NCBI GenBank assembly: GCA_964354555.1
Contig: CAYHAF010000001.1
Coordinates: 1 to 51,061, forward strand
Source of the DNA: an uncultured Candidatus Saccharibacteria bacterium
GTDB lineage: Bacteria; Patescibacteriota; Minisyncoccia; Minisyncoccales; JAHCRE01
Length of the DNA stretch: 51,061 bases
Reading direction: 5' to 3'
A model generated the notes under the pieces. It was not told the origin of the DNA. It searched no databases and saw only the letters and a list, made by a program, of their open reading frames with translations. Positions 13,995 to 45,950 of this stretch are shown here, piece after piece. A program made the position numbers and the translations under genes. How positions within the stretch are numbered: position 1 is the first letter of the stretch; every line of letters starts with the position of its first letter.

Positions 13995-14073
13995 TGGCGG
14001 ACCCAAGGGGATTTGAACCCCTGATCTTCTCCGTGACAGGGAGACGTGTTAGACCAGGCTACACTATGGGTCC
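13995..14073 (-). tRNA. tRNA-Asp(GTC), CCA encoded
   Basis: GGACCCA TA GTGT AGCCTGGTCTA ACAC G TCTCC CTGTCAC GGAGA AGATC AGGGG TTCAAAT CCCCT TGGGTCC G CCA. Confidence 0.9.
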
Positions 14074-14098
14074 ACAAATGCCGGCGGTCGGATTTTCA

Positions 14099-14153
14099 CC
14101 CTGTTAAATAATTTCTCTTTTGGGAAATTCCCGCTTTGCGGGATTTAACAGGG
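14099..14153. repeat. PE-E palindromic element in the T loop of the outer shell
   Basis: CCCTGTTAAAT ... CCCGCTTTGCGGG ATTTAACAGGG. The same arms and inner hairpin occur at 45018-45081. Confidence 0.75.
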
Positions 14154-14199
14154 CGGGCCGACGACCTAGCGCTTACTCGCCCCCACACCATAATTATTG

Positions 14200-14385
14200 T
14201 GCCAGAGGTGGGGGTCGAACCTTCACCCGCCTAAATTTCTAATTATGGCTGCGAGAGGATTTGAACCTCTGACCCAACGCTTATGAAACGTTCGCTCTAC
14301 CACTGAGCTACGCAGCCAAAAATTTTTGGCGGGCAAGCGACCTCTCGCTTATGAAACGAATGCTCTACCACTGAGCTACTCTGGC
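14200..14385 (-). pseudogene. middle split tRNA(CAT)-like shell, interrupted at the T stem by PE-F arms enclosing tRNA-Met
   Basis: GCCAGAG TA GCTC AGTGGTA GAGC A TTCGT TTCATAA GCGAG AGGTC, then CCCGCC (14328-14333 on plus) ... GGCGGG (14226-14231), then GAAGG TTCGACC CCCAC CTCTGGC A. Acceptor 7/7, residual T stem only 3/5. Confidence 0.6.
14246..14317 (-). tRNA. tRNA-Met(CAT), elongator or Ile2-type, innermost gene of the nest
   Basis: GGCTGCG TA GCTC AGTGGTA GAGC G AACGT TTCATAA GCGTT GGGTC AGAGG TTCAAAT CCTCT CGCAGCC A. Canonical, 72 nt. Confidence 0.9.
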
Positions 14386-14529
14386 CGAATTTGGTGTGGG
14401 GGTGAAAAACGAATGCTCTTCCGGGGTGATTTTTAACGCCTCGCAGGGACGCTCAACTAAATCACCCGTGTAAGACAAGCAGTTGTCTTACACCCACTGA
14501 GCTACGCCGGCCCAGACCAAACTCTCTTG

Positions 14530-39815: not shown

Positions 39816-41573
39816 TTATTCTAAAATCGCACGGATTCTTCTTACTCCAGCACCCGATGATTCTTCTTTTATGATTTTAAATTTACCTAACTCTGAAGTT
39901 CTGTTAGTATGGGGTCCGGCACAGATTTCTCTTGAAAAATTACCTACCGAATAAATGCTGACTTTTCCAGGGTATTTTTCCTTGAAAAAGGCTAAACTGC
40001 CTGATTTTAACGCCTCCTCGTAATTCATTTCTTCTTTTTTAACTTCTAAATCTTCTTTAATTTTTTGATTTACCAAATCTTCCACTTTTTTTATTTCTTC
40101 TGGAGTCATCTTTCGGGGATGAGAAAAATCAAATCTTAATCTTTGAACCGTAATATCAGAACCCATCTGCTTCACATGAGACCCTAAAACATCTCTCAAT
40201 ACTTGGTGTAATAAATGGGTGGCGGTGTGAAGTTTTGCCGACTGATAAGTCGCCTCTTTTCCCACTCCACCAAACTTCTTTTCTGCACCAGCTCGGGAAA
40301 TTTTTCGGTGCTGCTCAAATGCTTTCTTAAAACCTTCGGTATCCAAACTTAAGCCTTTTTCTTTTGCTAATTCCTGAGTTAATTCAAAAGGGAAACCAAG
40401 AGTATCAAAAAGATGAAAGCAATCCTCTCCTGAAATATTCCCTATTTTTGAGATTTTTTCAAATTGCGTCAATCCCCTTTTTAAAGTTTTCTCAAACTTT
40501 TCTTCTTCATTTTGAATTGCAACCAGAATATCATTTTCTCTTGTCTTTACTTCTAAATATATCTCTTTATATATTTCAATTACTTTTTGTGCTAAAGGAA
40601 TTAAAAAATTCTTCGGTAAATTAAGTAATTTTCCGTACCTAATTGCTCTTCTTAAAACTCTTCTTAAAATATAGCCTCTTTCAACATTTGAAGGAAAAAT
40701 TCCTTCTGAAATTAAAAAAACTGCACTTCTTATATGGTCGGCAATAATTCTATATGATTTTAAATCTAAAGTATAGGGTTTATTTGCGTTTTTTTCTATC
40801 TCTTTAATAATCGGAAAAAATAAATCTGTTTCAAAAACTGATTGTTTTTCTTGAACTACAGCCATTAATCTTTCCAAACCCATCCCGGTATCAACACCTT
40901 TTTGTTTTAATGGCGTTAATTTACCATTTTGATCCTGATAATATTCGTTAAAAACTAAGTTCCAAACTTCAAAACCTTTAAGATAAATTTCACTGGTCGG
41001 ACCGCATGGACCTTCTAAACCCGTTGGCCCCCAGAAATTATCTTCTCTCCCCATTTTTTTTATCTTTGATTGGGAAATACCTAAATTCAGCCATATTTTT
41101 TCTGACTCTCTATCTTCAGGAATAACTTGCCCTGAGTCTGTCGAAGGGTCACCGGCGAAAACTGAAACGTAGTCAATTTTTAAGCCTAATTCTTTAACTA
41201 TGAACTCATACGCCGATTCAATTGTTTCTTTTTTAGAATAACCTGCCCCGTAGGCCCCGCCCTTTTCTGAAAAAGAGCGGGGTCCTTCGGGGTCTCCGAA
41301 GCTGAAATTCCCTAACATCTCTACAAAAGTTAAATGGCTTATATCCCCTACTGTTTCTATATCAGAAGTCCTAAAACATTTCTGGCAGGAAATGACTCTT
41401 TTTCCATAAGGAGATTCTTTGCCTAAAAAATACTCTTTAAATTGCTGCATTCCGGCTGTAGTAAATAAAACACTTGGATCAGTTGGCAAAAGCGAAGAAG
41501 AAGGTACAATCTTATGCCCTCGTTTCTCAAAAAAATCCAAAAATTTTTGCCGAATTTCATCAGAATCAATCAT
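39816..41573 (-). CDS. alaS: alanyl-tRNA synthetase, short form (585 aa), with two palindrome-derived in-frame inserts
   Basis: GNFSFGD, editing-domain HTATHLLH and CAGPH motifs. Much shorter than the roughly 870-aa canonical enzyme. Confidence 0.9.
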   Translation of the reverse strand: MIDSDEIRQKFLDFFEKRGHKIVPSSSLLPTDPSVLFTTAGMQQFKEYFLGKESPYGKRVISCQKCFRTSDIETVGDISHLTFVEMLGNFSFGDPEGPRSFSEKGGAYGAGYSKKETIESAYEFIVKELGLKIDYVSVFAGDPSTDSGQVIPEDRESEKIWLNLGISQSKIKKMGREDNFWGPTGLEGPCGPTSEIYLKGFEVWNLVFNEYYQDQNGKLTPLKQKGVDTGMGLERLMAVVQEKQSVFETDLFFPIIKEIEKNANKPYTLDLKSYRIIADHIRSAVFLISEGIFPSNVERGYILRRVLRRAIRYGKLLNLPKNFLIPLAQKVIEIYKEIYLEVKTRENDILVAIQNEEEKFEKTLKRGLTQFEKISKIGNISGEDCFHLFDTLGFPFELTQELAKEKGLSLDTEGFKKAFEQHRKISRAGAEKKFGGVGKEATYQSAKLHTATHLLHQVLRDVLGSHVKQMGSDITVQRLRFDFSHPRKMTPEEIKKVEDLVNQKIKEDLEVKKEEMNYEEALKSGSLAFFKEKYPGKVSIYSVGNFSREICAGPHTNRTSELGKFKIIKEESSGAGVRRIRAILE

Positions 41574-44008: not shown

Positions 44009-45106
44009 CTATTGTTTTCTTAAATATTCGGCGGCTTTTTCCGGCTCAATGGTTGAAATCTCCATTCGAGTTCCGATTTCAAATCCTGCCCAAACAGAAG
44101 TTTTTGGTAAAATTGTCCAATGCCAATGATAATAATCGTATTTTCTGCCATCGCATGGAGCAGTATGCAAATAAAAATTGTAAGCAGGATCGTTAAGGGC
44201 TTTAAAAATTTTACCTAAAGCTGCTTTAAAAGCTTGAGCCAGCTGCCATTTTTCTTTTTCGGTAATTTTTTCGAAATAAGGTAGGTGTTTTTTGGGTGAA
44301 ATTATCAGTTCAAAAGCTGATTTTGATGCAAAGGGACATAGGACTAAAAAATCTTTATTTTCAAAAACAATTCTTTTCTTTATCTTCTTTTCCCATTTAT
44401 CCATCTCACAATAAATGCATTTTTTTTCTCTTTTAAAATATCTCTTAGAATTGGAAAGGCCTCTGGTCAAATCAACATCAACCAAAGGAGTGGTGATGAT
44501 TTGGGAATGGGGATGAAATATGGAAGCCCCGGATTCTAAACCATGGTTATGAAATATTGAAATATGATTAACAAATGGTTTTACCATCAAATCTAAATAT
44601 CTCTGATGATAAATATCAATTACTTCCTTAACTTTTTCTAAACTAAGCAGAGCAAGTGATTTCTTATGATTCCTGGTAACAACTATCTCGTGAAAACCTG
44701 CGGCATTTATCGTTTCATAAAGATTGCCTTCTATTTTCTTGTCTAGCTTAGAAGATGGCAAAAAAGCGGGAAATTTATTCGTAATCGAAATAGTCGTCCA
44801 TTTTTTTTGTTCCTTCCCCCTGACCTTTTTCCCTCGAGAAAAAACTAATGTCGCATCTTTTATAATGTCTTTTTTGCAAAAAGGGCAGGTTTCTTTAGAA
44901 AATTCTTGGCTTACTTTTTTTTCTCTTCTAAAGGTTTCGGGTCTCCTCGCCCTGCCTGTAGCAATAACAACCCAGTCTTTTGAGATTAAATCAAGTCTAA
45001 GCTCTGAAGGAAACCTTACCCCGTTAAATACCCCGCCCTTCTGCGAAGGGCTGGGTCCCGCTTTGCGGGATTTAACAGGGTGAATTTTTTTAGGCTTTTT
45101 AGTCAT
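44009..45106 (-). CDS. galactose-1-phosphate uridylyltransferase-like (HIT superfamily)
   Basis: 365 aa. CPFC zinc motif and HPHSQI active-site motif. The first 30 or so codons are encoded by PE-E. Confidence 0.75.
   Translation of the reverse strand: MTKKPKKIHPVKSRKAGPSPSQKGGVFNGVRFPSELRLDLISKDWVVIATGRARRPETFRREKKVSQEFSKETCPFCKKDIIKDATLVFSRGKKVRGKEQKKWTTISITNKFPAFLPSSKLDKKIEGNLYETINAAGFHEIVVTRNHKKSLALLSLEKVKEVIDIYHQRYLDLMVKPFVNHISIFHNHGLESGASIFHPHSQIITTPLVDVDLTRGLSNSKRYFKREKKCIYCEMDKWEKKIKKRIVFENKDFLVLCPFASKSAFELIISPKKHLPYFEKITEKEKWQLAQAFKAALGKIFKALNDPAYNFYLHTAPCDGRKYDYYHWHWTILPKTSVWAGFEIGTRMEISTIEPEKAAEYLRKQ
45018..45081. repeat. PE-E element within the 5' coding end of the galT-like gene
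   Basis: ACCCCGTTAAAT / ATTTAACAGGGT arms. Inner hairpins ACCCCGCCCTTC..GAAGGGCTGGGT (PE-B-like, 45030-45056) and CCCGCTTTGCGGG. Confidence 0.75.
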
Positions 45107-45950
45107 ATTTATGCGTTATGAAATTCCATCTTATTTTAACTAAATCAAGAGCCATTTTAACCATGCTTTTAAATTTTACCTTGCTTTCCAAGTCATTTTT
45201 CCAAAAAATAGGAATTTCTTTTATCTTATATTTTAATTTTTTGGCAATTAATAAGACTTCGGTATCAAAAGAAAAACGCAAAATTTTACATTTCGGAAAA
45301 ATAGTTTCGGTTGCTTTTTTCGTAAAGCATTTAAAGCCGCATTGGCTATCCTGAATTTCCCATAAACCAACGATAATTTTTCTGACTAATTTAAAAACTT
45401 CCCCTGTAAATCTCCTTTGCCAAGGCTGGGGCGGATCTAAAACTGCTCCTTTTAAATCTCGAGAACCAATAACAATGTCAAAACCCTCCTTAAAATAAGG
45501 CCACATTTTTTCAATCTGTTCAAGAGGAGTTGAATTATCAGCATCAGTAAAAATGCGGTAATCACCTTTTGCCTCCAACATTCCTTGGTGGACTCCGAAC
45601 CCCTTGCCTCTTTTTTTAGGAAATTCAAGCAGTCTTAAGTTTTTAATGGTTCGATTCGGCTCACCATTAACCCTGAGCTCTGTCGAAGGGTTAATTTCTG
45701 TCATCAAATTTCTGACAACTTCGCAAGTTTTATCGGTGGAGCCATCAGAAACAACAAGAATTTCAGACTCATAATTCTGTTTTCTTAAGTATTTGTCTAT
45801 TTCTTTTAAAGTCCCAGTCAATCTTTTTTCTTCGTTATAAGCAGGGACAATAACGGAAAGATAAACCCCCACACCATAAGGAGCACTAGCGCCTTCGGCG
45901 CTAAAAGATGAATAATGTGCTCCTTTGGTGTGGGGGTAAATTTCTGACAT
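45099..45950 (-). CDS. family 2 glycosyltransferase (start uncertain: 45950 or GTG at 45872)
   Basis: 283 aa. SVIVPAYNEE and TDADN motifs. Codons 1-26 lie in a PE-A palindrome. Confidence 0.8.
   Translation of the reverse strand: MSEIYPHTKGAHYSSFSAEGASAPYGVGVYLSVIVPAYNEEKRLTGTLKEIDKYLRKQNYESEILVVSDGSTDKTCEVVRNLMTEINPSTELRVNGEPNRTIKNLRLLEFPKKRGKGFGVHQGMLEAKGDYRIFTDADNSTPLEQIEKMWPYFKEGFDIVIGSRDLKGAVLDPPQPWQRRFTGEVFKLVRKIIVGLWEIQDSQCGFKCFTKKATETIFPKCKILRFSFDTEVLLIAKKLKYKIKEIPIFWKNDLESKVKFKSMVKMALDLVKIRWNFITHKYD
45866..45936. repeat. PE-A clamp element at the GT2 gene start
   Basis: CCCCCACACCATAAGGAGCAC / GTGCTCCTTTGGTGTGGGGG with inner hairpin TAGCGCC/GGCGCTA. Confidence 0.8.

Follow-up and report, generated by a model that had tools for sequence, protein, structure and literature searches.

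The window, i.e., the whole stretch of 51,061 nucleotides analyzed here, carries on its minus strand a galT gene, the product of which belongs to the galactose-1-phosphate uridylyltransferase family: it matches both PF01087 and PF02744 (the N- and C-terminal GalT domains) and has 2797 homologs in Patescibacteria. The GalT His-Pro-His motif (H198-P199-H200-S201-Q202) is invariant or nearly so in 48 sequences, and the invariant GalT residues are retained in the window protein. A palindromic element of a family called here PE-E lies in frame near the start of this gene, a second copy occurs elsewhere in the window, and the features concerned are the following:

45099..45950, minus strand: upstream family-2 glycosyltransferase gene, the last codons of which overlap the galT ATG (same arrangement in related loci)
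45083..45106, minus strand: native galT start codon and codons 1-8 (MTKKPKKI), based on homology to element-free orthologs
45017..45082, minus strand: 66-nt (22-codon) miniature palindromic element of the PE-E family, in frame in galT, with boundaries taken from the empty sites of orthologs
45070..45080, minus strand: left arm CCCTGTTAAAT, read P-V-K (arm invariant over 23 aligned copies)
45057..45069, minus strand: short inner hairpin CCCGCAAAGCGGG, 5 bp, based on the sequence and on a compensatory change in strain L029
45030..45056, minus strand: long inner hairpin module ACCCAGCCCTTCGCAGAAGGGCGGGGT, 27 nt, 11 bp with one mismatch
45019..45029, minus strand: right arm ATTTAACGGGG, read F-N-G (the usual form, CAGGG, gives F-N-R)
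44009..45016, minus strand: rest of galT, from R31-FPSELR to the stop codon (Pfam PF01087 and PF02744)
41255..41282, plus strand: solo hairpin CCCCGCCCT...AGAGCGGGG, of the same family as the galT long module, inside the AlaRS gene
14099..14153, minus strand: second PE-E copy, with a 55-nt core, at the T-loop position of a broken outer tRNA shell
14079..14511, minus strand: outer tRNA-like shell, based on acceptor pairing, interrupted in the D, anticodon, and T loops

From the ATG at 45106, the galT frame is open over 365 codons and runs through the element, in agreement with the initial annotation, in which the element was described as open in this frame between the ATG and the conserved core. 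On the minus strand, the codons ATG ACT AAA AAG CCT AAA AAA ATT are followed by CA, by the left arm, the short hairpin, the long module, and the right arm, in this order, then by TA and by AGG TTT CCT TCA GAG; residues 9-30, encoded by the element, read HPVKSRKAGPSPSQKGGVFNGV. ATG 45106 is the sole in-frame ATG, GTG, or TTG upstream of the conserved residues SELRLDL, none of these codons being present in frame inside the element or between it and the conserved core, as had also been noted. Since this sole canonical start and the core lie on either side of the element, it was proposed that the element donates the translation start region along with a basic N-terminal tail, which would mean that the original start has been displaced.

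Ortholog alignment, named beforehand as the check able to refute this proposal, was run and yielded homologous N-termini without the palindrome. Most galT orthologs are 345-350 aa long, with (K/R)FPSELR placed behind a short N-terminal tail rich in lysine. The element-free N-termini include MTKQFKIKNNEKFPSELR, MKPKKKTKGKIRFPSELR, MTKQPKKITYGQKASGRIKFPSELR (L003), MTKQPKKI..KFPSELR, and that of L002, which ends in GKIRFPSELR, while the L035 gene starts with ATGACAAAAAAACCTAAAAAACCAAAATTTCCTTCAGAG, translated as MTKKPKKPKFPSELR. The window protein consists of MTKKPKKI, the 22 element-encoded residues, and RFPSELR, and removing the 22 codons gives MTKKPKKIRFPSELR, which is equal in length to L035 and resembles L002 at its end (..KIRFPSELR). 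In all the loci examined, the galT ATG is found at a constant position among the final codons of the glycosyltransferase gene lying upstream, and its overlap with the upstream stop amounts to 8 nt in the window, L029, and L060-L065. The site itself was found to be free of the element in all 48 species-representative relatives. Because the element-free orthologs share a homologous N-terminus at the same ATG, ATG 45106 and codons 1-8 are to be regarded as native on the strength of these alignments, and the element as an internal 22-codon insertion located between I8 and R31. That the element provides the start region is thus refuted, as it begins only at codon 9, after eight codons homologous to those of element-free orthologs and placed at the same position with respect to the upstream stop. 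What stands of the proposal on the basic tail is that 22 in-frame residues, with a net charge of about +4, do come from the element; the first eight residues of the tail do not.

Another alternative is that translation starts past the element, at a non-canonical codon, which would place the element in the 5' untranslated region. A strong hairpin right after the ATG might hinder initiation, but no ATG, GTG, or TTG is available in this frame, the invariant FPSELR starts two codons past the element, so that a later start would delete conserved residues, and the position of the ATG is conserved in more than 40 related loci; we therefore take this alternative to be extremely improbable.

The gene appears to be functional despite the insertion. 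Between the window and L029, which are two element-bearing strains, the dN/dS ratio of the galT core is 0.12 at a dS of 0.20, which shows purifying selection on a gene that works with the insert present. In the AlphaFold model of GalT, the confidence of which is moderate (mean pLDDT 62), the pLDDT stays under 50 over residues 1-32, which lack secondary structure, the first strand starting at residue 35: the insert is likely to be located in a disordered tail according to this model. The 22 element-derived amino acids are most likely harmless.

The core of the galT element is a Y-shaped palindrome of 62 nt (45080-45019, minus strand) consisting of two 11-nt arms and two inner hairpins. The stretch previously delimited, 45018-45081, corresponds to its perfectly palindromic part, while the unit actually inserted, as defined by the empty sites, is 45017-45082 (66 nt), i.e., the core plus 4 nt (YA...TR). 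As RNA, the element folds into a three-way junction with an energy of -40.7 kcal/mol (z = -6.2), and none of 200 shuffled sequences was equally stable. This hairpin begins 22 nt past the galT start codon and, being so close to it, could depress the expression of the gene. The arms taken alone provide weak evidence, since their 4 matches in the window were equaled in 9 of 100 shuffles. The full two-arm pattern cannot be put down to chance: there are 13 instances in the genome, 46 of the order's 301 genomes have it (41 of 200 genera), and the reversed control pattern gave no matches. A phylum-wide sample of 401 genomes contained 11 with the same strict pattern (again with no control matches), and no matches were obtained in the three genomes of the same family or in viral contigs.

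A permissive search yielded about 20 PE-E copies in the 899-kb genome to which the window belongs (G000). The arms of the family are nearly invariant, and the inner hairpins vary yet stay paired: in 23 distinct 56-nt copies, which, as a caveat, were chosen and oriented by their pairing, 97.4% of the cells pair and 13 of the 25 pairs have changed on both sides, and neither shuffles nor slid registers came close to these values. The elements have either one hairpin (35 nt) or two (44, 53-56, 59-65, or 70 nt). These miniature copies are small, have terminal inverted repeats, and possess no coding capacity of their own. The positions flanking the core on the outside are T, T, Y, and A in 86-92% of the copies, and the composition returns to background beyond them; the flanks (TT-YA, core, TR-AA) are inverted rather than direct, the net insert is the core plus 4 nt, and no target-site duplication is visible at the copies. 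A duplication of TA or TTAA is unproven, position -2 being C as often as T. A scan with Rfam of the window and the tRNA region detected only ordinary tRNAs and gave no match at either element.

About one third of the miniatures lie inside genes, in frame, and read xPVKS...FNRV. The six genic copies of G000, which are located in galT, a gene for a MurF-like ligase, an ORF on contig C20, a PheT-like gene, murD, and ksgA, all have the same phase and orientation, with the reading [H/Y]PVK[SC]...FNR[VA]; the alignment of MurD and of KsgA with solved structures extends to either side of a gap, of 21-22 aa and 13 aa, respectively, that coincides exactly with the element. Among 64 further copies fetched from 25 other genomes, 13 are internal to long ORFs and 12 lie near an ORF end. 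All these 25 genic copies are in the frame of the host, 21 of them in the xPVK...FNR phase and four, near the end of the ORF, in the phase LLN...LTG, which means that the phase xPVK[SC]...FNR[VA] is used by 27 of the 31 genic copies overall. Sites are occupied recurrently: this is the case for the same site of PheT in G000 and G075 and for that of KsgA in G000 and G074, the latter two with different forms of the element, while a TsaD-like gene of G143 carries three copies, one of which is common to G107. Copies near the start are also present in other genes, 11-37 codons from it. The genic inserts always consist of the core plus 4 nt; the codon preceding them is NTT (I, V, F, or L) and that following them is usually AAN or ARG, from which we infer that insertion occurs at TT|AA-like sites.

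All 31 genic copies are stop-free and have an insert length of 3n. No copy of a frame-shifting length was found to split a gene (0 of 17), as compared with 31 of 63 frame-neutral copies present in genes (Fisher p 1e-4); this test is frame-agnostic and its candidates were inspected by eye. Five frame-shifting copies with open frames on both sides are located at the junctions of tandem genes, where ..PVK and a stop within the arm close the upstream gene and the start of the following one lies 5-20 codons beyond the element. The core of most of the intergenic copies is also 3n+2 in length; frame-neutrality thus characterizes the family as a whole and is not proof of selection at galT.

Translational bypass is known from gene 60 of phage T4 and from the mitochondrial "byp" elements, and yeast mitochondria have mobile GC-rich hairpins that are passed over during translation. 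The element in galT, which forms a very stable hairpin, might similarly be excised from the mRNA, or the ribosome might jump over it, and the mature GalT would then lack the 22 residues. Inserts that are bypassed or spliced out need not be 3n in length or stop-free, however, whereas all the genic copies are in frame and open and the 17 non-3n copies are all outside genes, as would be expected if the elements are translated. Nor was any Rfam family, ribozyme, or intron match found at the site, and this explanation is very unlikely in our opinion. Judging from the reading frame, translation of the 22 residues within the N-terminal tail is most probable.

We therefore favor, with a probability of roughly 0.8, the explanation that the galT element is a miniature PE-E inserted into a native tail, that the start was kept, and that the 22 residues are translated. 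A gene-less miniature has landed in the lysine-rich tail of galT, between codon 8 and the codon before FPSELR; the frame is kept by an insert of 3n (a core of 3n+2 plus 4 nt) that is stop-free in the xPVKS...FNRV phase. Translation would start from the native ATG 45106, coupled to the stop of the upstream gene, the ribosome would read through the hairpin, and the enzyme would gain 22 residues in a tail predicted to be unstructured. Where annotation is concerned, this means that the upstream ATG should be kept and that the 22 residues should be treated as an element-derived insert, rather than as a mis-called start or a novel signal peptide.

The miniatures share their arms with a full-length element of 281-291 nt, in which 15-nt inverted ends (TTYACCCTGTTAAAT ... 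ATTTAACAGGGTRAA) surround a single gene encoding an 85-aa GIY-YIG nuclease. In G000 (contig C31, 867-1149), the arms enclose 283 nt with the 85-aa ORF, which matches PF01541 over residues 3-71 (E 1e-15); GIY-YIG is the only Pfam match of this protein above the curated cutoff, two weaker ones being sub-threshold, and no NCBIfam match above threshold was obtained. No recognised transposase was thus detected in the parent element with either Pfam or NCBIfam. The nearest PDB entries are the UPF0213 proteins 1zg2 and 1ywl. The last codons and the stop of the ORF (..TTA ACA GGG TGA/TAA) are the arm itself, and the fact that the ORF stops within the arm with TGA or TAA accounts for the Y/R position beside the core. 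The 281-291-nt unit was identified in 7 other genomes (G033, G114, G048, G279, G100, G226, and G263). Both arms are present within 400 nt in 9 of the 12 GIY-YIG hits having at least 65% identity (8 of 10 loci), the remaining three hits (in G139 and G292) having one arm only, and paired arms are lacking at the distant small GIY-YIG genes (below 64% identity). Two copies, at C60:149-315 and C65:3070-3232, retain only the first ~25 codons between the arms and read as deletion intermediates. These intermediates and the shared arms identify the short PE-E copies, at the sequence level, as miniature, non-autonomous derivatives of the nuclease-bearing element.

Counting the window, 9 of 121 galT orthologs carry the element at the same site and 112 do not. 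On a maximum-likelihood tree of the GalT core protein, this distribution requires 7 changes, at least 6 of which are forced by well-supported branches, and galT thus appears to have been hit by the element, or cleared of it, at least 6 times at the identical site. The galT elements of the window and L060 are identical at 61 of 62 positions, while the GalT proteins are only 69% identical. L060/L061 and L062/L063 are more than 99% identical over ~5 kb and their elements differ solely in the long hairpin, where the 27-nt module is replaced by a 21-nt AATTTCNCC...GGCGAAATT module. The module of the long hairpin likewise differs between the window and L029, a 93%-identical strain, in which the short hairpin is CCCACAAAGTGGG and shows a compensatory change from G-C to A-T; the unusual right arm CGGGG is common to both. 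The 27-nt module itself is a member of a hairpin family also found alone elsewhere in the genome, as in the AlaRS gene listed above. One element is nested within another in P0104, and an identical 56-nt element was found in the genome of a member of another class. The recurrence at the site, the module swaps, the identity across classes, and the nested copy indicate that re-invasion or gene conversion may be frequent and that the elements probably also spread horizontally. With a site hit at least 6 times, near-identical elements in 69%-identical host genes, and strains more than 99% identical which differ in one module, the turnover seems to be very fast.

The repeated occupancy could also reflect co-option, in which case the hairpin would tune how galT is translated or how stable its mRNA is, or else a function would reside in the basic peptide. 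The presence of the element at one site in 9 of the 121 orthologs through at least 6 independent changes and the copies close to the start of other genes are in line with this idea. Most of the orthologs lack the element, however, the inner module is freely swapped between strains more than 99% identical, and the recurrence is equally explained by a preference for TT|AA targets together with a tolerant disordered tail; co-option is therefore unlikely, and insertion of a tolerated miniature remains our preferred reading.

What was found at the galT locus is ordinary for the PE-E family, and the family, for its part, represents a little-described variant among the kinds of elements already known; no description of it in CPR bacteria was found in the literature searched, the coverage of which is incomplete. 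A close parallel is provided by the Rickettsia palindromic elements (RPE), palindromes found in frame within housekeeping genes (Ogata et al., 2000, 2002, as summarised in PMC10969869). Like PE-E, these are dispersed palindromes present in frame in unrelated housekeeping genes and in RNA genes, with a peptide conserved in one phase and tolerated by the host protein. The RPE measure ~100-150 bp, whereas PE-E cores are 35-70 nt long, have arms of 11-15 nt, and contain inner hairpins that can be swapped; RPE are restricted to Rickettsia and no parent element is known for them, whereas PE-E occur in CPR bacteria along with a nuclease-bearing full-length form. The galT insertion thus provides a well-resolved CPR case of selfish palindromes of the Rickettsia type inside essential proteins and, unlike in Rickettsia, a candidate parent is available. 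Ssn is a single-domain GIY-YIG nuclease of ~94 aa acting on single-stranded DNA, the gene of which is flanked by SRM/NTS hairpin repeats in an arrangement noted to be insertion-sequence-like (Chenal et al., 2025; PMC11893778). The PE-E parent likewise has a single-domain GIY-YIG protein of about 90 aa (85 aa in PE-E) between hairpin-forming repeats that exist in many gene-less copies, but in PE-E the two ends are terminal inverted repeats that pair with one another, and about one third of the PE-E copies are inside genes as opposed to 2% of the NTS (PMC11893778). The SRM consensus HGTCWY...RNCYNB is matched by none of 19 PE-E copies and only once in the whole genome. Lastly, bacterial MITEs, such as the Coxiella QMITE with its in-frame fusions (PMC5896051), and also ERIC and BOX, are short, not autonomous, bounded by terminal inverted repeats, and able to lengthen an ORF or to break it up, and PE-E miniatures resemble them in sharing their ends with a longer, enzyme-encoding element; the parents of MITEs are classical IS elements with a transposase, usually producing target-site duplications, while the PE-E parent has only a GIY-YIG nuclease and no evident duplication.

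By analogy with Ssn, we infer that the nuclease, probably acting on the folded single strand, may mobilise the element into TT|AA-like sites. To our knowledge, GIY-YIG nucleases are not known as transposases and, as no target-site duplication is visible either, this mechanism of mobility is a conjecture. In a broader proposal, which we put forward tentatively as possible rather than probable, the 281-291-nt unit would transpose autonomously, would represent a mechanistic class undescribed so far, and would be among the smallest transposable elements known, with an Ssn-like nuclease that recognises the folded Y-shaped single strand; the miniatures would have evolved to be frame-neutral and stop-free so as to live in the essential genes of gene-dense CPR genomes, with insertion at TT|AA-like sites, horizontal spread between classes, and hairpin modules exchanged as fast as strains diverge. 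The present data link small cassettes of GIY-YIG genes and hairpin repeats, of which Ssn/SRM is an example, to real and recurrent insertion events.

The initial annotation had also placed a copy of the element in the T loop of a tRNA. The copy at 14099-14153 has indeed the same arms and the same CCCGCTTTGCGGG hairpin as the galT element, and it occupies the T-loop position; the tRNA-like shell around it is disrupted and apparently a dead relic, and hence provides no evidence that a working tRNA tolerates PE-E. The copy is flanked by the T stem of the shell (GTCGG...CCGAC) and then by CGCCGGC-A, complementary to GCCGGCG-TA-GCTC at 14511, the acceptor pairing being formed by GCCGGCG (14511-14505) and CGCCGGC (14088-14082). 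With its inserts in place, the tRNA-like shell was not called as a tRNA by ARAGORN or Rfam, ARAGORN found no tRNA in 14060-14260 when only the PE-E was removed, and a DNA search for 14154-14245 in 40 relatives detected no homologous region. When all three inserts were removed in silico, ARAGORN recognised a tRNA in 61 of 210 splice variants. The D loop and the anticodon loop of the shell hold other palindromes and whole tRNA-Met genes.

The final codons and the stop of the upstream gene are supplied by PE-E, the mobile palindromic element family, at five tandem-gene junctions, where the upstream gene enters a PE-E arm or goes deeper into the element and terminates there:
C95:377-440 (genome of the window, G000), PE-E at junction
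C112:1085-1148 (G000), PE-E at junction
C10:6621-6675 (G000), PE-E at junction
L073, compared locus, PE-E at junction
L110, compared locus, PE-E at junction
Four of these five genes end in ..PVK*, and that at C10, which is read in the LLN phase, ends in ..REII*.

Copies were also found inside genes. In two paralogous Mur ligases of G000, PE-E occupies an equivalent structural position, approximately 17-19 residues past the GKT/S P-loop:
C41:4542-4603, PE-E in MurD
C18:5424-5479, PE-E in the MurF-like ligase
One TsaD/Kae1-like gene carries three in-frame copies in a single genome (L124, G143:C4:54232-56287), and one of these three sites is also filled in another genus (L125, G107). The galT ortholog P0036 has an unusual N-terminal stretch, AIRGPHQNAGGWWVGW, ahead of SPSELR, which may be a different element inserted at the same site as the PE-E of galT.

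Outside the window, a full-length PE-E (G000 C31:867-1149; junction ..TTTTCAT/TCACCCTG) directly adjoins the start codon of a neighbouring 287-aa gene, so that its left arm starts immediately past that ATG, on the other strand. Seven more small GIY-YIG genes, showing 33-57% identity to the PE-E nuclease, were identified in G000, and none of the seven is flanked by PE-E arms:
C16:5540-5788
C43:4111-4353
C27:7001-7234
C123:178-369
C7:8907-9086
C7:9555-9752
C13:8924-9130
A different palindrome (C16 5450-5512, arms CCCTGTTAGAAGC) adjoins the C16 gene. It may be that several nuclease-palindrome pairs exist side by side.

The solo GC-rich hairpins CCCCGCCCT..AGGGCGGGG form a family separate from PE-E:
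window 41255-41282
G000 C9:7195, C10:10141, C17:5284, C55:1333, C71:1070, C96:701
The AlaRS gene holds one in frame, further copies occur at other places, and the long-hairpin module of the PE-E copies in galT, C41 and C52 belongs to this family. These hairpins behave as exchangeable modules.

At the nested tRNA locus, the middle shell is a tRNA-Met-like sequence lacking the T arm (window 14332-14385, minus strand), which scores 29.7 bits, at threshold, with the Rfam tRNA model.
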